From positions 25,784 to 89,783 of the forward strand of contig JWKQ01000001.1 of assembly GCA_000806115.1 (NCBI GenBank): a DNA stretch of 64,000 nucleotides, given 5' to 3'. Below, one piece after another: positions 4,783 to 11,011 of the stretch; within the stretch, counting starts at the first letter, position 1, and the number at the start of each line of letters is the position of its first letter. The DNA comes from an archaeon GW2011_AR5. GTDB taxonomy: Archaea; Aenigmatarchaeota; Aenigmatarchaeia; GW2011-AR5. The notes below the pieces were generated by a model, which ran no database searches, was not told the origin of the DNA, and saw nothing but the letters and a program-made list of their open reading frames with translations. The position numbers and the translations under genes were made by a program.

Positions 4783-5112
4783 GTGAAAAATATGAAGTCT
4801 GATGAAGAGATGAAGACTGAGGATATCCTTGAAATCGTCGAGATTGCAAGAGAAACAGGCAAGATAAGAAAGGGCATAAACGAAGCGACGAAAGCTGCAG
4901 AAAGGGGCATAGCAAAGGTAATCGTCGTTGCTGAAGACGTGGACCCTCCTGAAATTGCGATGCATCTCGGCCCGCTCTGCGAAGAGAAGAAATGCAAACT
5001 GTTCAAGGTGGCAAGCAAGAACGAGCTTGGACGGGCTGCAGGACTTGACGTCTCGACCGCGGCCGTGGCGATAACGGACCTGGGCGACGCCAAGAAGAAC
5101 TTCAAGGAGTAG
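4783..5112 (+). CDS. rpl7ae: 50S ribosomal protein L7Ae (eL8), K-turn binding
   Basis: [38 protein letters not shown] matches the L7Ae/L30e family. Confidence 0.92.
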
Positions 5113-5726: not shown

Positions 5727-7682
5727 TTATTTCGGGCCGAAGATAAACGGCTGCGGCTTCTCTTTTTCCTTCCTGATTTTCTTCGGATTTTCCGGTTTAA
5801 TCCCTCTCGGCTTTTTTCTCAGAACCTTAATCGCAACGCCGGCTGCCACTAAGACCGCCCCCAATATCGCAATTATGACAGGATTTGACGCGATTATATC
5901 CGACGCGCTTCCCCCGCCCGAGCCGAAAATATCGAATACAGAATTCCCGTTACCGCCGCCATTTCCGGGAATATCTTCGTCTCTGCATGTGCCGCAGTCC
6001 GCCGCACAGTTTGAACACGTTTCACTCAGGCTGCAAACATTATTGCCGCAGTCAGCCGGAGTGAAGTTTCCGGAACTGCCCGAGCCGTTCGCGCTTCCAT
6101 TTCTGCCATCGTTTTCCGAGTACCATAATCCCGGAGCATTTGAATTTCCGCTGCTGCTTCCACTATCTGAATTTACGGAGCCGCTTTTGCTCACTGTTAT
6201 TGTTTTTGAGGCTGAGCCCGAATTGCCTGCTGCATCGGTGGCTGTGACGCTAAGGCTGTACTCCCCGTTGCTAAGCCCCGAAGGATCATAATTCGCCTCG
6301 CACAGGATGCTGTTGCTGCTTGCGACTACGCACGACATTGTTGTGCCGCTTCCTGAAACCGTGTAACTGACACGCGTCCTGTCGTAGTTTGTGTCGTTCA
6401 CCGTGGCGCTGATTGTGAACGTGCTGCTTACAGCGGAATTAGGCCCTGTTATTGCCACTACCGGATCCGTGTTGTCTGCCGTGACGGCGACTGTGTCGGT
6501 GGCGGGCTGGTCCAGTATATTGCTTGCGTTCGCCGTGAGCGTGTAAGCCCCGTCACCTGCCGTTACAGTGTTGAACGAGTAGCTGCAGCTTGTAAACTGC
6601 GAGTTGCAGCTCATTGTTACGTTATTGCCGTATCCCGACCTCTCTATCCTGAGGTGCACGCCATTGATTATGCTGCCGGGGTTGGAGAGCGACGCGCTTA
6701 TGCTCGCAGTGCCCGTCACGTAACCTTCCGGGCTGAGCGTCACAGACGGCATGTTGTTGTTTATCGTAAGCGAGAAATTTGTCGAGTTCACGTTTCCTGC
6801 CGTATCATTAACGCTGAATGTGACGTTGTAAGCGTTGTCCGGAAAAAGAGCCGTGTTGACAGTGACGTTGCATGTTGCGTTTCTCGTGCCGGTGCAGGTC
6901 ATCGTACTTTCCGACCCTGATATGCTTAGCTTCCCCCTGTCGGCGCCAGAGAACGAGTCGAGCGCGTTAATAACAAATGAAACTGTGCCTCTCACAGTGG
7001 CGCCCGCCGAGTGGGAAGTTACGGAAATTCTCGGCTTTTCGTTGTCCACAGTTGCGTTGATGGCTGACGTGCCGGTGTTGTTGAGGATATCGGACGCACG
7101 AACATATATAGTTAGCGTCTGGTTGTTTGAATATGCAGACGAGTTGAAATATCCGGTGCCGGAAGGCATGCTGCTCCATGTTGAATTGTCAAGGGAGAGC
7201 CTGTACGCGTCGGCGTTTACCCCCGAGACTGCGTCTGTCGAACTTGCCCGCACAGTGACGTTGCCGGAAACGTACGAGCCGTTCAACGGAGCAAGGAATG
7301 TTATCACTGGTGGACTCCTGTCCAGTCTGAACTGGAAGAATCCCGGATTGCCCAGCCTGTTTACGCCTGAACTGTCGTTAGCCTCGAAATAGAAGAATTC
7401 AATGGTGTCCGCGCCTGCTATAGCAAAGGATACTGTTTTGGTGCAGTTGTAAGGATTTCCTGAACATTGCATTGTATATGTGTCCCAGGGTTCGCCGTTG
7501 ATGTATGCGTCTTCGGAGATGAGATAAAGCCTGGCATAATCAAGCGACGACGAGGTTACATTGACGTAGAAACTGACGTTGCCGCGGCCGAAATAACTGT
7601 TGTTCGCAGGGAGATAATTTGAGAGGGAAGCGGCCTGAACGCCCGGCAAAAGCATCAACACGACAAGAAGAAGCCATCGCAT
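5727..7682 (-). CDS. large secreted, membrane-anchored surface protein (probable glycoprotein)
   Basis: 651 aa. Signal peptide MRWLLLVVLMLLPGVQAAS, dozens of N-x-S/T sequons, a repetitive beta-rich body, the Cys-rich motif CGNNVCSLSETCSNCAADCGTC, a Gly/Asn/Ser linker, one C-terminal TM and a Lys/Arg tail. Confidence 0.75.
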   Translation of the reverse strand: MRWLLLVVLMLLPGVQAASLSNYLPANNSYFGRGNVSFYVNVTSSSLDYARLYLISEDAYINGEPWDTYTMQCSGNPYNCTKTVSFAIAGADTIEFFYFEANDSSGVNRLGNPGFFQFRLDRSPPVITFLAPLNGSYVSGNVTVRASSTDAVSGVNADAYRLSLDNSTWSSMPSGTGYFNSSAYSNNQTLTIYVRASDILNNTGTSAINATVDNEKPRISVTSHSAGATVRGTVSFVINALDSFSGADRGKLSISGSESTMTCTGTRNATCNVTVNTALFPDNAYNVTFSVNDTAGNVNSTNFSLTINNNMPSVTLSPEGYVTGTASISASLSNPGSIINGVHLRIERSGYGNNVTMSCNSQFTSCSYSFNTVTAGDGAYTLTANASNILDQPATDTVAVTADNTDPVVAITGPNSAVSSTFTISATVNDTNYDRTRVSYTVSGSGTTMSCVVASSNSILCEANYDPSGLSNGEYSLSVTATDAAGNSGSASKTITVSKSGSVNSDSGSSSGNSNAPGLWYSENDGRNGSANGSGSSGNFTPADCGNNVCSLSETCSNCAADCGTCRDEDIPGNGGGNGNSVFDIFGSGGGSASDIIASNPVIIAILGAVLVAAGVAIKVLRKKPRGIKPENPKKIRKEKEKPQPFIFGPK

Positions 7683-8137
7683 CAGTTGTTCACCTTCTCA
7701 AGCAGCCTGAGTATGTCCTTCTTTGTAACTATCCCGACAAGCTGGCTTGATTTCACGACAGGCAGTCTGTCTATGCCGTGCTTGTTCATCAACCTCGCAG
7801 CCTCGTAGACGTCACGTTCGACGTCCACCGAAATAACCTTCCTGTTCATGATGTCGCTTACCCGCGCTTTGAACAGCTTTCTGAGGCGGGCGGGGTCGCT
7901 GCCCTTCGATTTCAGGATGGATATCAGCAGCGAGGATATATCGCTTCTGTTAATCTTCCCGTATATGTCAATGGCACGGACTGCGTCCGTCTGGGTCACA
8001 ATACCAATCAGTTTTCCGTCCTTCACCACCGGACAGCCGCTGATGTTCCTGCCGGTCATGAGGCGCACGGCTTTGCCGAACGTGTCGTCCGGCTTCACAG
8101 TTACCGGGCGCTTTGTCATGATATCCTTAATTCTCAT
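7682..8137 (-). CDS. tandem CBS-domain protein
   Basis: 151 aa. Two CBS repeats (ISGCPVVKDGKLIGIVTQTD and IDRLPVVKSSQLVGIVTKKD). Confidence 0.85.
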   Translation of the reverse strand: MRIKDIMTKRPVTVKPDDTFGKAVRLMTGRNISGCPVVKDGKLIGIVTQTDAVRAIDIYGKINRSDISSLLISILKSKGSDPARLRKLFKARVSDIMNRKVISVDVERDVYEAARLMNKHGIDRLPVVKSSQLVGIVTKKDILRLLEKVNN

Positions 8138-8190
8138 GGTTGCTAATTGTCGGGGGCGGAATAAAAAGTTTCCAGACTCGGATGTATATA

Positions 8191-8346
8191 GTTCTCCAAG
8201 GAAATAAGCAATATATAATTACTTCCTTGGGAACTACAAGGTGAAGCAAAGCTTCACCTGTACAGGAGAATCAAAGATTCTCCTTGTATCTGTGAACCCA
8301 GAATTCATGTCCTGTTTCTTTTCCGGGTTCACTATAAGATATAAAA
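8191..8346 (+). repeat. four-hairpin module 1 ending in a strong TATA-like box
   Basis: Stems at 8191-8203/8223-8234, 8239-8247/8251-8259, 8262-8272/8276-8287 and 8292-8299/8325-8332, followed by TATAAGATATAAAAG. Confidence 0.7.
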
Positions 8347-8489
8347 GCCTTTAGTTTCAAGCTATAGCTGTTGAAGGCTAGGGGAATGGACAGATTAGCG
8401 CTTCGCGCGACATGTCCGCTTATTGCTCCGATGAACCTTTCGTGTGAGCTTCTCTTTTACAGAGATGCTCAATGCCACGCTCCTAATAT

Positions 8490-8604
8490 CCCGCATTTGA
8501 AGATGCGGGTTTCATGGGAACACAAGGCGAAACGAAGTTTCGCCTGTGCAGGAAAAGCTCAGCTTTTCCTTGCATGGCATCCCGCATTCTTCCAAGAAGA
8601 ATGC
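8490..8604 (+). repeat. four-hairpin module 2, colinear with module 1, upstream of rps13
   Basis: Stems at 8490-8496/8503-8509, 8525-8533/8537-8545, 8548-8558/8562-8573 and 8584-8592/8596-8604. It shares the linkers GGGAAC-ACAAGG, CCTGTRCAGG and CCTTGYAT with module 1. Confidence 0.7.
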
Positions 8605-8629
8605 AAGATAAACATACACGGGTAATTCA

Positions 8630-9124
8630 ATGGCTGAAGCTCCTAAACAAGAGACTCAAAGACGAATAGTCAGGGTAATGACCACCGACATAGACGGCTC
8701 GCTCAGCGTCGAGCGCGCGCTGCGCAAAATCAAGGGCGTCAGCTTCATGTTCTCAAAATCCGTCTGCACCGCAACCGGCATAGACAGAAGGAAAAAAATC
8801 GGGCTTCTCAGCGAGGCAGAGGTAAAGACTATAGAAGGTTTCATCAAGAAGCCGCAGCTCCCGAAATGGATGCTGAACAGGCGGAAGGAGCCTGAAAACG
8901 GCGACGATGCGCACCTTACCATGGCGGACCTGGATTTCAGGAAACGCGAGGACATAAACACACTCAGACGCATACGCGCCTACAAGGGCATACGTCACGA
9001 GCTCGGGCAGCCCGTGAGGGGACAGAGAACCAGGAGCAGTTTCAGGACGCAGAAAACAGTAGGAGTCTCGAGAAAGTCGATACAGCAGGCGTCCAAGCCG
9101 AAGCCAAAGGAAGAAAAGAAGTGA
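8630..9124 (+). CDS. rps13: 30S ribosomal protein S13 (uS13)
   Basis: IVRVMTTDIDGSLSVERALRKIKGV...IRAYKGIRHELGQPVRGQRTRS matches uS13. Confidence 0.93.
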   Translation: MAEAPKQETQRRIVRVMTTDIDGSLSVERALRKIKGVSFMFSKSVCTATGIDRRKKIGLLSEAEVKTIEGFIKKPQLPKWMLNRRKEPENGDDAHLTMADLDFRKREDINTLRRIRAYKGIRHELGQPVRGQRTRSSFRTQKTVGVSRKSIQQASKPKPKEEKK

Positions 9125-9130
9125 TGATTC

Positions 9131-9631
9131 ATGGGACAACCGAAAAAATTCAAGAAGAAATACTCGCGGCCGAAGAAGCCTTACGACAAGGAGCGCATAG
9201 ACACGGAGCGGAAGATACTCAATGACTACGGACTCCGCAGGAAAAAGGAAATCTGGAGAGCCGAAGCAATCGTCCGCGATTTCCGCCGACGCGCACGCGA
9301 TTTGCAGGCAAAGAACAACCAGTCGGACGAGCAGATGCTTATTCAGAAACTTAACAAGCTGGGAATACACTGCAAGAAACTGGACGACGTCCTGCAGATA
9401 ACCCTTGACGACATATTGTCAAGGCGGCTTCAGACAATCATAGCAAAGAAGGGCATAGCGAACAGCATGCGCCACTCGAGGCAGCTCATAGTCCACGGGC
9501 ACGTGACTGTGAACGAGAAGAAGATATTCTGGCCGAGCTACATCGTGGAGAAGGACCTGGAGGAGAAAATCTCCCTGACACCCCGGATGTCTGCAAAAGC
9601 AATAAGCCAGGAAGCGAAGAAAAGTGAATAA
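9131..9631 (+). CDS. rps4: 30S ribosomal protein S4 (uS4)
   Basis: PKKFKKKYSRPKKPYDKERI..YGLRRKKEIWRAE and an S4 RNA-binding domain (SMRHSRQLIVHGHVTVN). Confidence 0.93.
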   Translation: MGQPKKFKKKYSRPKKPYDKERIDTERKILNDYGLRRKKEIWRAEAIVRDFRRRARDLQAKNNQSDEQMLIQKLNKLGIHCKKLDDVLQITLDDILSRRLQTIIAKKGIANSMRHSRQLIVHGHVTVNEKKIFWPSYIVEKDLEEKISLTPRMSAKAISQEAKKSE

Positions 9632-9633
9632 TA

Positions 9634-9825
9634 ATGAAACTGACGAACATAGACTATAAAAATCCTGTCAGTGTGTACAGACATCCAAACGGCATTGTTG
9701 AAAGGCATTATACTGACGGACGCGTAGAGAGGGAATTTCCTAACGGCATAATCGAGATGCGTATCCTGATTGATGGCTGCATACCATACACAACGGCGAT
9801 CATGCCGCTCAAGCTCGGAGATTGA
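9634..9825 (+). CDS. small repeat-containing protein inserted between rps4 and rps11
   Basis: 63-aa ORF that fits tightly, starting 2 nt after the rps4 stop and ending 5 nt before the rps11 ATG. It has internal repeats ([10 protein letters not shown] / TDGRVEREF / PNGIIEMRI). Confidence 0.5.
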
Positions 9826-9830
9826 TAATT

Positions 9831-10223
9831 ATGACAGCGAAAGAAAAATGGGGCATAGCGCACATATATTCCTCTGTTAACAACACGATAATTCATATAA
9901 CAGACATAACCGGCGCCGAAACGATAGCCATAGCCTCGGGCGGACAGGTATCAGACAAGGACATGAACAAGGGCAAGCCGTTCACAGCCATGAAGGCTGC
10001 GCGCAAAGCGGCGGAAAAGGCGACCGCATCGGGCATTACCAACCTGCACATAAAAATACGCGCGCCCGGCGGAATCAAGGCGCGCATTCCGGGACAGGGA
10101 GCACAGCCGGCAATAAGGACGCTGGCGAGGGCGGGCTTCAGGATAGGACAGATTGAGGACGTCACGCCCGTGCCTCACGACACGTGCCGCAAAAAGGGCG
10201 GACGAAGGGGAAGAAGGGTATAG
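9831..10223 (+). CDS. rps11: 30S ribosomal protein S11 (uS11)
   Basis: [65 protein letters not shown] matches uS11. The ATG at 9831 is preferred over the TTG at 9822. Confidence 0.93.
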
Positions 10224-10234
10224 GAGTGATATTC

Positions 10235-11011
10235 ATGAACGTGAAAATACTCAGCAAGTCACAGAATAGAATAAAGTTCCTGCTGGAAAAGTCAAACCCG
10301 GCTTTCGCGAACGCGCTGCGCAGGGTGATGAAGAGCGAAGTGCCTACAATGGCAGTTGAGTTTGTCGACTTTGAGGAGAACACGTCCGGCATGTTTGACG
10401 AGCTTGTTGCGCACCGCATCGGGCTCATTCCGCTTACATACGATGAAAAGGCGTACAGCCTGAAAAACGACTGCAAATGCGGCGGCAAGGGCTGCAGCCG
10501 ATGCGAAGTCACTCTGGTGCTTGACAAACAGGGCCCGTGCACGGTAAAAGCGGGCGACATGAAGTCAACCGACGACAGCGTCCAGCCGCCGGAGAAAGAC
10601 ATACCCATTGTCGAACTGCTTGAAGGGCAGAGACTGAAATTTGAAGCCGTGGCGCAGCTGGGCCTCGGCATAGACCATATAAAATGGCAGGCGGCGAATG
10701 TCGGATACCAGTACGCACCAATCGTGAAGGTAAGCAACGCAGACCCAAAGATAGCGGATGTCTGCCCCACGCATGTCTTCGAAAAAAAGGACGGAAAAGT
10801 GAAGGTTGTAGCGGAAGACAGATGCACGCTTTGCATGCGCTGCACCGAAGTTAGCGAGGGCGTAACAGTGCAATCGGATGACAGCATATTCATATTTGAT
10901 GTAGAATCAGTCTCGGGACTGACTGCAAAAGAGGTAATCAACAAAGCGCTTGACGTGCTCGAGGAAAGGGCGGAAAGCCTGGCAGAGAGCGTCAAGAAGA
11001 ATGTAAAATAA
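10235..11011 (+). CDS. rpoD: DNA-directed RNA polymerase subunit D (Rpo3) with Fe-S cluster domain
   Basis: NPAFANALRRVM..VPTMAV is typical of Rpo3. Cys clusters CKCGGKGCSRC and CPTHV..CTLCMRC. The ATG at 10235 is preceded by GGAGTGAT. Confidence 0.9.
   Translation: MNVKILSKSQNRIKFLLEKSNPAFANALRRVMKSEVPTMAVEFVDFEENTSGMFDELVAHRIGLIPLTYDEKAYSLKNDCKCGGKGCSRCEVTLVLDKQGPCTVKAGDMKSTDDSVQPPEKDIPIVELLEGQRLKFEAVAQLGLGIDHIKWQAANVGYQYAPIVKVSNADPKIADVCPTHVFEKKDGKVKVVAEDRCTLCMRCTEVSEGVTVQSDDSIFIFDVESVSGLTAKEVINKALDVLEERAESLAESVKKNVK

Follow-up and report, generated by a model that had tools for sequence, protein, structure and literature searches.

Two kinds of described system resemble parts of the locus presented here, namely the leaders of ribosomal protein mRNAs and small palindromic repeats. 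The E. coli alpha-operon leader is a nested pseudoknot bound by S4. Among the repeats, the Sulfolobus SM1-type MITEs are counted with the IS630/Tc1-mariner-type MITEs, which have a TA target duplication. Palindromic repeats of the REP/BIME type can alter expression when they are located in UTRs (general description: PMC3184786, PMC2229807). Ribosomal protein operon leaders such as the E. coli alpha leader have a narrow distribution (PMC3616713). L7Ae represses mRNAs by way of K-turns in their 5' UTRs, which have a GAU bulge and lie beside the Shine-Dalgarno sequence (PMC5539422, PMC6298567). In a K-turn, G.A and A.G pairs follow a 3-nt bulge, and U is found at position 2n in natural K-turns (PMC2790904, PMC5061560); 2n = U is a non-standard class known from Kt-23 (PMC2790904). 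Kt-7, the K-turn of 23S helix 7, is a binding site of L24 in the ribosome, and L7Ae binds it in vitro with a Kd of 10 pM (PMC3884654, PMC4316175). A change from G to U at 2n of Kt-7 blocks ion-induced folding in vitro (PMC5061560).

The window, which is the whole stretch of DNA analysed, is 64,000 nt long and belongs to the genome of an uncultured archaeon, an 858-kb Aenigmatarchaeota assembly that is 87.6% complete (labelled G000). It contains the rps13 operon and, divergent from it, a gene for a CBS-domain protein (Table 1). This divergent pair is conserved in relatives. The CBS-rps13 gap, 492 nt long in G000, was described in an earlier note as containing two four-hairpin modules (modules 1 and 2, with cassettes A and B of Table 1), the second of which was proposed to lie in a structured leader of the operon. 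The reading preferred here, with a probability of about 0.85, is that small palindromic repeats have invaded the gap, which is otherwise an ordinary divergent promoter region, and that the operon-specific element is a leader hairpin reproducing 23S helix 7 with its Kt-7.

Table 1. Features of the CBS-rps13 region, in window positions
Feature	Position	Strand	Basis or remark
CBS-domain protein gene, divergent neighbour of rps13	7682..8137	-	Pfam CBS, E = 2e-36
A/T box AATAAAAAGTTT, read as the TATA box of the CBS gene, ~25-35 nt from its ATG	8160..8172	-	conservation; putative promoter role
LR repeat (TATAG...CACTATAA), ~97-nt dispersed two-hairpin element, split by module A; hairpins 8196-8230 and 8292-8332	8187..8337	+	genomic copies
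Module A, 52-nt double-hairpin cassette, CAAGG-hairpin-CCTGTACAGG-hairpin-CCTTGTA	8237..8288	.	TA at 8235-8236 repeated at 8287-8288
TATA-type box of the rps13 operon, GATATAAAAG	8338..8347	+	conserved in 8 relatives; predicted promoter
K-turn-type leader hairpin	8373..8440	+	model R1, 68 bits; conservation, covariation
Leader hairpin, P1: GAAGG with CCUUU	8373-8377 with 8436-8440		
Leader hairpin, short strand CUA	8378-8380		
Leader hairpin, P2: GGGG with CUCC	8381-8384 with 8426-8429		
Leader hairpin, P3: variable hairpin	about 8387-8418		
Leader hairpin, long strand GAUGAA	8430-8435		
Extra hairpin GAGCUUCUCU-UUUAC-AGAGAUGCUC, lineage-specific filler between leader hairpin and P repeat	8446..8470	+	window sequence
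P repeat (ATGNNNNGCTCCTAATA-hairpin-TTTCATGGGARCA, then TRGCATCC-hairpin-GGATAA), split by module B; hairpins 8490-8509 and 8584-8604	8472..8611	+	genomic copies
Module B, 52-nt double-hairpin cassette, CAAGG-hairpin-CCTGTGCAGG-hairpin-CCTTGCA	8523..8574	.	CA at 8521-8522 repeated at 8573-8574
Shine-Dalgarno-like GGGUAAU and rps13 start codon (ATG at 8630)	8620..8632	+	relatives: GGUGAU or AGUGAU, same spacing to ATG
rps13 - rps4 - (63-aa ORF) - rps11 - rpoD	8630..11011	+	Pfam Ribosomal_S13, S4, Ribosomal_S11, RNA_pol_A_bac with RNA_pol_L; ORF list

The gap is strongly structured when compared with shuffled sequences (z = -10.2 on the + strand and -13.5 on the - strand). The two strands fold alike because the elements in the gap are palindromic, and thus the folding neither identifies the strand nor shows that RNA is the active form. 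Only two open reading frames are found in it, at 8371-8625 (84 aa, with a TTG start) and at 8514-8669 (51 aa). Both cross the repeats and the gaps of relatives are much shorter, so that the original statement that there is no convincing ORF holds. No tRNA was found in the gap, and a permissive search of positions 7500-9500 against Rfam 15, with E values up to 10, returned nothing at the gathering score. The sub-threshold matches, to the Tetrahymena H/ACA model (33.9 bits against a gathering score of 100) and to miRNA models, were rejected as chance, since they reflect a generic two-hairpin shape.

The orthologous gaps are ~170-220 nt long in five genomes of the same genus and 52-278 nt in other genera. 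In 12 relatives with the same CBS/rps13 pair all four repeats, that is LR, P and both cassettes, are absent from the gap. Some relatives have other small inserts at the same two gap positions. Both promoter boxes can be followed across these gaps. The CBS-proximal box is kept as GATAAAAAGTTT or AATAAAAAGTTT beside the CBS start in same-genus relatives. On the rps13 side, the TATA-like stretch of the earlier note is present, at 8333-8347, but the conserved promoter box, found in the same relative place in relatives, is only GATATAAAAG (8338-8347) on its right; the left half, CACTATAA, belongs to the LR repeat, whose 3' end is at 8337. The conserved box aligns with TTTATAAAC, TTTAAATGC, CTTAAAAGC and TTTAAAAAG in 8 relatives, ~35-45 nt 5' of the leader hairpin. 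Because module 1 is situated upstream of this box, between the two divergent promoters, it is probably absent from the rps13 mRNA altogether. Judging by the anatomy, module 2 could plausibly lie within a long rps13 leader.

There is indeed a structured leader conserved upstream of rps13, as the earlier note had supposed for the S13 operon, but it is not formed by the modules. The exact motif of the leader hairpin occurs in a single copy per genome and only upstream of rps13. It is present in 7/9 genomes of genus g1 and 3/3 of g6. A covariance model finds the hairpin in 11 genomes of two genera, and the minimum-free-energy fold has the same architecture in nine of 11 sequences. A third genus, g29, has a minimal form, CAAGG-CUA-GCC-GAAA-GGC-GUCGAA-CCUUG, that adjoins the Shine-Dalgarno sequence. 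The C helix is GGGG/CUCC or GCC/GGC, covarying, and the 3-nt bulge is GAU, AAU or GUC. G1b, A2b and A1n are invariant in 13/13 leaders, and 2n is always U. Position 3b is A and 3n is C, G or A; CCUU/AAGG-type pairs follow, the two outer of which covary. The distance from the hairpin to the Shine-Dalgarno sequence is 0-1 nt in g29 (CCUUG-GUGAU), 4-6 nt in two genomes (G006 and G007) and ~180 nt in G000. The last of these spacings does not fit simple occlusion. A descriptor search of the G000 genome for other K-turn leaders gave the rps13 site and scattered matches that are probably due to chance. When a loose K-turn pattern was run over 370 genomes, the control matched as many sequences as the real pattern, apart from the rps13 leaders and 23S rRNA.

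The leaders and 14 23S helix-7 hairpins fit one structure, which is 97.4% paired and in which 8/9 pairs are changed on both sides. Like helix 7 with Kt-7, the leader consists of an NC helix, N-(G/U)-A, a C helix of 3-4 bp, a 3-nt bulge and GA-A-CC. The corresponding 23S sequence of one relative (G021) reads CCAAGG-CGA-GCC-...-GGC-GUUGAA-CCUUGG. The leader differs from the 23S of a family member at 3/27 core positions compared; the mimicry is judged against the 23S of relatives, as the 23S is unassembled in G000 and in all same-genus genomes. Of the 14 23S sequences from this order, six share the U at 2n of the leader. The two hairpins differ in that the leader sits in an mRNA and has GAAA or a long variable hairpin in place of the terminal loop GCAUGCA of 23S; the leader thus lacks the loop that makes the ribosomal tertiary contact. 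Mimicry of the S11/Kt-23 kind was suspected at first because 2n is U, and was dropped when the match to 23S helix 7 turned out to be far closer. Helix 23 of the G000 16S reads CACGG-GUA-AGA-GUAAAA-UCU-UUUAAU-CCGUG and has no G.A at 1b, and no stretch of the G000 16S resembles the leader hairpin.

Judging by this likeness, the leader hairpin probably binds L7Ae or uL24, and it is a better candidate for feedback control than the modules are. The window contains an L7Ae gene at 4783-5112 (Pfam). The S13-S4-S11-RpoD operon itself includes no gene for L7Ae or uL24. A more specific proposal, to which we give slightly less than an even chance, is that the hairpin represents an undescribed archaeal ribosomal protein operon leader that mimics 23S helix 7 (Kt-7). 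L7Ae or uL24 that is free of ribosome assembly would bind to it and set the translation of S13, S4, S11 and RpoD, while each repeat nearby would fold back on itself and thus be tolerated as a structurally neutral spacer. The binding of such a K-turn protein would couple translation of the operon to ribosome assembly. If this is true, the leader would link large-subunit assembly to the synthesis of small-subunit proteins and an RNA polymerase subunit.

The hairpin might instead have no regulatory role and be a neutral relic that binds nothing specific, originating from an old insertion of an rRNA-like fragment or representing a promoter-proximal element that acts at the DNA level. Its narrow range of three genera, the non-standard U at 2n and a distance to the Shine-Dalgarno sequence that varies between 0 and ~180 nt among genomes are in keeping with such an origin. 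Nevertheless, it is an unlikely one. Neither strand of the K-turn core varies between two genera that have an S13 identity of only 63-79%, and the helices covary and the bulge varies as they would in a K-turn. Furthermore, insertions have occurred before the hairpin, in its terminal loop region and after it, but have never hit the core, and the element is strictly single-copy and bound to its position.

The modules have quite different properties. Their quoted sequences are found in the window exactly as reported, and the modules do have common linkers, forming a direct repeat of 54 nt (8236-8289 and 8522-8575) with 76% identity. All of the inner hairpins are perfect (8239-8247/8251-8259 and 8264-8272/8276-8284 in module 1; 8525-8533/8537-8545 and 8550-8559/8561-8570 in module 2). 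The flanking hairpins that had been described were likewise found, at 8196-8207/8219-8230 and 8292-8303/8321-8332 around module 1 and at 8490-8497/8502-8509 and 8579-8592/8596-8609 around module 2. A pattern made of the linkers only, ACAAGG-N15-CCTGTRCAGG-N15-CCTTG, has two matches in 64 kb, which are the two modules, and none is expected from 100 shuffles. The compensatory nature of the stem changes was confirmed in 20 genomic copies, in which 97.0% of cells are paired and 16/20 pairs are changed on both sides. In these copies none of 500 shuffles reaches the pairing observed for the two-hairpin fold, and slid controls reach 38-46%. The copies have a conserved NGAANC stem core and TAC/GTA ends. 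With the copies oriented to the + strand, G.U pairs (11) are not commoner than non-pairs (12), and thus no strand preference was detected.

The genome contains ~24 module loci (nhmmer), of which ~20 are full copies of the ~52-nt cassette. There are 14+13 CCTGTRCAGG centres, whereas the reversed sequence, used as a control, gives 2-3. Of 23 module copies, 19 fall between crude gene calls, by which only 12% of the genome is non-coding. The repeats that carry the modules are themselves dispersed. Besides partial copies, LR has 16 full-length copies without a module in G000, which share sharp ends and vary in their stems in a compensatory way, and eight copies with a module at the same TA and always in the same orientation. 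An empty LR site has GAACTA directly followed by TCTGTGAAC, whereas a filled one has GAACTA, the cassette and TA in front of TCTGTGAAC. P has seven copies, five without a module, in which GGGAGCA is joined to TRGCATCC, and two with a module at the same site, namely the window copy and another at C1:183038 of G000. The cassettes end in CAAGG and CCTTG, and TA (cassette A) or CA (cassette B) occurs twice at filled sites and once at empty ones; these dinucleotides also extend the hairpin stems. The 2-nt 'duplications' could be part of the palindromes or simple microhomology, and the difference between empty and filled sites could be due to deletion instead of insertion. The extra hairpin at 8446-8470 has no second copy in the genome and is absent from relatives. 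A bulge-helix-bulge intron was rejected by inspection, as the flanks of neither cassette form two 3-nt bulges 4 bp apart.

Repeat copies within the genome are only ~75-92% alike, so that most of the insertions in G000 are, by this measure, old. The distribution of the repeats is patchy and bursty, even among close relatives. A query consisting of LR and cassette A matches 23/40 relatives, and the strict module pattern is found in 10/370 genomes of the phylum, nine of them in family f1, with no control matches. One genome (G013) has at least nine near-identical copies of one module variant, seven of which are identical. On the sequence evidence, the modules are members of a dispersed hairpin-repeat family and not a dedicated control element. 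The repeats form a proliferating, intergenic, hairpin-forming family of Aenigmatarchaeota family f1 that behaves like selfish DNA of the MITE or REP type. No known enzyme accounts for these nested hairpin repeats; a search of the 87.6% complete G000 assembly for three families, DDE_3, Y1_Tnp (PF01797; RAYT) and the TnpB zinc ribbon, gave no match. A search of the literature on Aenigmatarchaeota and DPANN for these repeats gave only a general MITE census, which reports high densities in some DPANN genomes (PMC11602168).

The cassettes, LR and P could also act mainly as RNA that is used by the host, either as cis-acting modules or small RNA genes or as mRNA stabilisers, processing sites or leader spacers, in which case their spread would reflect function. 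The stems of the modules and LR are strongly maintained by compensatory change over diverged copies, the stem core and the ends are conserved, and copies are found in UTR-like positions adjoining genes. In G000, moreover, a long-range helix predicted between 8439-8445 and 8616-8622 would close the inserted block and bring the leader hairpin beside the ribosome-binding site. Nevertheless, a role as RNA is improbable, because the palindromes fold equally on both strands with no detected strand preference, the repeats are patchy among close relatives and show bursts of identical copies, their mutual nesting is typical of selfish DNA, module 1 is in a spacer that is probably not transcribed, and no Rfam family matches.

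It is very improbable that the modules are parts of a dedicated S13-S4-S11 operon leader through which S4 (or S13 or S11) would exert autogenous control by binding, as in the E. coli alpha operon, since, although their stems covary, module 2 is between the conserved promoter and the rps13 start and the gap is strongly structured, modules occur at ~24 unrelated intergenic places, both are nested in other repeats, neither is upstream of rps13 in any relative examined, module 1 is upstream of the TATA box and the conserved element at the locus is a different, single-copy hairpin. The earlier note had itself stated that absence of the modules upstream of rps13 in relatives would argue against a regulatory role, and absent they are. 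Its suggestion of an S4 leader also falls away, as nothing ties the modules to S4, and the conserved element mimics 23S helix 7 (Kt-7), not an S4 site.

The preferred reading, a divergent promoter region invaded by repeats, would account for the anatomy of the gap as follows. The ancestral order would have been the CBS start, the CBS TATA box, the rps13 TATA box, the K-turn-type leader hairpin, the Shine-Dalgarno sequence and rps13. A near-bare version of this layout is seen in related genera. An LR repeat carrying cassette A (8187-8337) would have been inserted between the two TATA boxes. The solitary hairpin and a P repeat with cassette B (8446-8611), ~180 nt together, would have entered the 5' UTR downstream of the leader hairpin and upstream of the Shine-Dalgarno sequence. 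Since each host repeat has a cassette of the same kind between its two hairpins, the 'four-hairpin modules' look alike. The stems of the repeats are kept by compensatory change.

Compensatory changes between nearby look-alike sets of hairpins can stem from selfish palindromic repeats and do not imply a dedicated riboregulator. The check that settles between the two is the genomic copy number together with the orthologous site in relatives. The locus is a further well-resolved example of how nested hairpin repeats fill what little intergenic space DPANN genomes have, with both filled and empty sites at hand. The K-turn hairpin of ~30-70 nt that resembles helix 7 is a testable candidate for archaeal ribosomal protein feedback control, of which few cases, such as L7Ae, were found in the literature consulted. 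Its natural variants, which are minimal or long and have an inserted spacer of 0 to 180 nt, provide a ready-made mutational series.

The repeats resemble the REP/BIME, BOX, Correia/NEMIS, RUP and Rickettsia palindromic elements in being short (~25-150 nt), multicopy, intergenic and hairpin-forming. Elements of the REP/BIME type, too, often form hairpin pairs and mosaics, show compensatory stem changes and are located in UTRs. However, the host here is an archaeon (DPANN), a RAYT/Y1 transposase was not found in G000, the unit, a double hairpin of 52 nt, has TAC...GTA ends and nests in other repeats, and its sequence is not similar to that of any family described. Terminal inverted repeats and, in cassette A, a TA at both ends with one TA at empty sites recall the IS630/Tc1-mariner-type MITEs, although the TA may be no true target duplication. 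As in MITEs, many dispersed, non-coding intergenic copies have common sharp ends, and their presence or absence differs at the orthologous rps13 gap. In contrast to such MITEs, no DDE_3 transposase was found in G000 and cassette B is flanked by CA instead of TA; furthermore, the 52-nt cassette is far smaller than usual, and the whole element is a hairpin pair instead of ends and filler. The double-hairpin elements, repetitive hairpin-forming elements and GC clusters of fungal and sponge mitochondria (PMC2800124, PMC4478555) are also tiny double hairpins that enter intergenic DNA and each other, in small gene-dense genomes and with no known enzyme of their own. The genomes and the sequences are different, and the likeness is one of behaviour only.

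The leader hairpin can be compared with the autoregulatory 5'-UTR K-turn of archaeal l7ae mRNAs and with the K-turns that L7Ae binds in other mRNAs (PMC5539422, PMC6298567). Both are 5'-UTR stem-loops with a GAU-type bulge followed by GA, and the proximity to the Shine-Dalgarno sequence is similar in the minimal g29 form, which directly abuts it, and in G006 and G007, where the K-turn is 4-6 nt off. The candidate differs in that it precedes rps13-rps4-rps11-rpoD and not l7ae, has U and not G at 2n, and in G000 has been moved ~180 nt from the Shine-Dalgarno sequence by repeats. The E. coli alpha-operon (rpsM) leader is similar in being a structured leader upstream of the homologous S13-S11-S4-RpoA set, but what is conserved here is a simple K-turn hairpin mimicking a 23S site and not an S4 site.

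The gap at 8138-8629 lies between a CBS-domain gene (7682-8137, minus strand) and the rps13-rps4-rps11-rpoD operon (plus strand), the genes being identified by Pfam. The genome comprises 858 kb in three contigs; the MAGs whose S13 is closest to its own carry the label Candidatus Aenigmatarchaeota. On both strands alike, folding of the gap is 10 to 13 SD better than for its shuffles. As the earlier note had reported, it contains no convincing ORF, the sole ones running through repeats, and two related modules (8236-8289 and 8522-8575), which form a 54-nt direct repeat of 76% identity with perfect inner hairpins of differing sequence. A further hairpin is present on either side of each module. 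The modules are unique in the window: a pattern made of the linkers only has no other match in the 64 kb, and none is expected by chance. Within the operon, a 63-aa ORF (window 9634-9825) exactly fills the space between rps4 and rps11.

Layout of the gap between the CBS-domain gene and rps13, in plus-strand order
Feature	Window positions
CBS gene start	to 8137
CBS TATA-like box	8160-8172
LR repeat with cassette A	8187-8337
rps13 TATA box	8338-8347
Leader K-turn hairpin (putative)	8373-8440
Solitary hairpin	8446-8470
P repeat with cassette B	8472-8611
Shine-Dalgarno-like GGGUAAU	8620-8626
rps13 ATG	8630

Each 'four-hairpin module' is a cassette nested in a two-hairpin host repeat, LR for cassette A and P for cassette B, and this nesting is the reason for the modules' colinearity. 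A BLAST search of the gap against the genome revealed that 8187-8236 and 8287-8337 are contiguous in most other copies. LR is a ~97-nt element with two hairpins, of the form TATAG...CACTATAA, and its 16 full copies end sharply at common boundaries and also show compensatory changes among themselves. In empty copies GA(A/G)CTA is followed immediately by TCTGTGAAC, and the window copy reads GAACTA-(CAAGG...CCTTGTA)-TCTGTGAAC, a 52-nt insert with the dinucleotide TA present twice. The cassette occupies this spot in eight LR copies, with a TGAAGC-type hairpin adjoining the left LR hairpin in all eight; given this constant orientation, either the composite spreads as a unit or insertion is oriented. 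The segments 8479-8522 and 8575-8611 are parts of the P repeat, which has the form ATGNNNNGCTCCTAATA-hairpin-TTTCATGGGARCA, the insertion site, and then TRGCATCC-hairpin-GGATAA. Five other P copies are without the cassette and one more has it at the same site; the dinucleotide doubled at the insert in the window is CA. All P copies start with a four-codon mini-ORF, ATG-NNN-NGC/TGT-TCC-TAA (ATGCCACGCTCCTAA at window 8472-8486; other copies on contigs 1 and 2 at C1:317217, C1:397479, C2:42322, C2:141604 and C2:219682), which may be a mere repeat boundary or a conserved upstream mini-ORF.

The central palindrome of the cassette, CCTGTRCAGG, occurs 27 times in the genome on both strands, compared to 5 for the reversed control, and most of these sites, inspected by sequence, have the whole module with differing stems. 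A profile search of the genome gave ~24 module loci, ~20 of them full length; 19 of 23 are intergenic according to crude gene calls, which cover 88% of the genome. The consensus of 20 aligned copies is TAC-A-AGG-NGAANC-loop-GNTTCN-CCT-GTAC-AGG-stem-loop-stem-CCT-T-GTA. When folded as two extended hairpins, 97.0% of the cells in these copies are paired and 16 of the 20 pairs are changed on both sides. This pairing is equalled by none of 500 shuffles, a significance that is overstated for related sequences, and slid controls reach 38-46%. An alternative fold with an outer stem is worse, with 88.6% paired for the outer helix. The compensatory pairs support the earlier claim of selection on hairpin formation, but this selection pertains to the repeat family rather than to the locus. 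Outside the window, a 651-nt intergenic gap (C1:182862-183219) holds three double-hairpin cassettes, one in an LR+A composite, one in a P+B composite and a third, of B type, in the second P hairpin, and its build closely parallels that of the CBS-rps13 gap.

The LR+A composite used as a query has matches in 23 of 40 relatives, among which are all nine members of the genus. Of 370 genomes in the phylum, 10 have the strict module pattern, nine in the family of this genome (itself counted) and one in family f3, with no control matches, and the number per genome varies from none to about 11. In one relative, G013, a single cassette variant, AAGGTGGATTCCATGAATCCACCTGTACAGGAGAATCTTCGATTCTCCTCG, is present over several contigs in at least nine nearly identical copies, seven of them identical. 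This burst is recent, and G013 is the best genome for finding the enzyme that moves the cassettes. Patchy and bursty spread is the pattern expected of proliferating selfish repeats. Searches of this genome for transposases of the DDE_3, Y1 and TnpB-type families found none. A census has reported that MITEs are dense in some DPANN genomes (PMC11602168), and no description of this repeat family was found in the literature on Aenigmatarchaeota/DPANN. Both modules belong to a family of nested hairpin repeats specific to this lineage. The 16S rRNA gene (C2:1179-2989, outside the window) is 1811 nt long, compared to the 1478 positions of the model, and is interrupted by large inserts in three places (rRNA positions about 470-590, 845-915 and 1495-1670), perhaps introns or inserted elements.

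Relatives retain the divergent CBS/rps13 pair, with a gap of about 170-220 nt in five same-genus genomes and 52-278 nt in other genera. Neither LR+A nor P+B was found in the relatives' gaps examined, so the regulatory role proposed for the modules, that of an S4-type leader, is not upheld. The gap has two insertion-tolerant spots, and some relatives carry other small inserts at these same positions: between the two TATA boxes (e.g. a short LR-like hairpin in G007) and downstream of the conserved leader, before the Shine-Dalgarno sequence, where unrelated hairpins take up 15 to about 140 nt. Two loci of family f2 (L034 and L035, in G024 and G031) have, about 60-170 nt upstream of rps13, a structured and conserved stretch of another kind (GTCGGTTT..GCCGGCGG..CCTAAAATGTTC..AAACATTAAA..TGTTTCT), possibly a further leader or the gene of a small RNA. 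At locus L031 (G025) the region upstream of rps13 is filled by a ~70-nt unit (ATAGAAGATGGAATAAAATTCCATCTGATTTAATCACTTCACATAGTTCAGTGATAAA) that is present three times in tandem.

A TATA-type box, a spacer of about 35-45 nt and a leader block, AGGG-NUA-GGGG-A-(variable hairpin)-UUG-CUCC-RAUGAA-CCUU, are common to all same-genus gaps and to one gap of another genus. Each genome has a single exact match to the motif, upstream of rps13 every time. A covariance model detected the leader in 7 of the genus's 9 genomes and 3 of 3 of a second genus, which are relatives and not independent samples, and gave nothing convincing elsewhere among 69 genomes of the order. RNAalifold and pair counts support an architecture in which helix P1, two of whose pairs covary, is followed by a 3 x 6 internal loop, helix P2 and a variable hairpin; single-sequence folding regains it for 9 of the 11 sequences. 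In a third genus, g29, the leader has a minimal form, CAAGG-CUA-GCC-GAAA-GGC-GUCGAA-CCUUG, followed directly by GUGAUAC..AUG. Here P2 is GCC/GGC in place of GGGG/CUCC and the bulge is GUC in place of GAU, whereas the long strand keeps its G-A-A and the short strand its U-A. Judged by its sequence, the element has the kink-turn signature, consisting of a C helix, a 3-nt bulge, G.A, A.N and an NC helix. Only position 2n departs from this signature, with U in place of G, as is known from Kt-23 (PMC2790904; PMC5061560).

The TATA-like box earlier placed at the end of the first module stands in its right half (8338-8347), which is the conserved TATA-type box. If this promoter is used, the rps13 leader is ~260 nt long, in agreement with the earlier estimate, and includes cassette B but not cassette A. 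In the MFE fold of 8368-8645 the inserted block is closed by a helix, 8439-8445/8616-8622, with a probability of ~0.87 for three pairs. The predicted pairing in the full leader, 8428-8445 with 8616-8633, joins the 3' strand of the K-turn to the Shine-Dalgarno and AUG region and encloses all inserted repeats. In this prediction, which concerns this genome only, the closing helix would put the K-turn region beside the ribosome-binding site and cover that site.

A loose leader-motif pattern, run across the phylum, matched two genomes within the 5' portion of their 23S rRNA, at model positions about 81-108, which is helix 7, the site of Kt-7. Helix 7 of 14 relatives has the form (6-bp NC helix)-N-(G/U)-A-GGC-GCAUGCA-GCC-UUU-GA-A-CC(NC helix), with U at 2n in six, three of them in the family of this genome. 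The 23S rRNA of G021 reads CCAAGG-CGA-GCC-...-GGC-GUUGAA-CCUUGG and, in a comparison over 27 core positions, has 3 differences from the minimal leader. When a linker stands in for the loops, leaders and rRNA hairpins conform to one structure (97.4% of cells paired, 8 of 9 pairs changed on both sides), the rRNA in this comparison being that of relatives since no 23S is assembled for this genus. The locus does have a conserved leader of putative K-turn type, not described before, which mimics helix 7 of 23S rRNA, and it is this leader that is worth experiment.

In the ribosome the partner of Kt-7 is L24, and in vitro L7Ae binds it with a Kd of about 10 pM (PMC3884654, PMC4316175). Together with the likeness to helix 7, this points to L7Ae or uL24 as the probable ligand of the leader hairpin. 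L7Ae is given a rough probability of 0.4; uL24 is considered somewhat less likely, and the remaining weight falls on another ligand or on none. Mimicry of the S11/Kt-23 type was dropped because the genome's own 16S rRNA has no such likeness to the leader. L7Ae represses its own and other mRNAs by means of 5'-UTR K-turns that have a GAU bulge and are close to the Shine-Dalgarno sequence (PMC5539422, PMC6298567).
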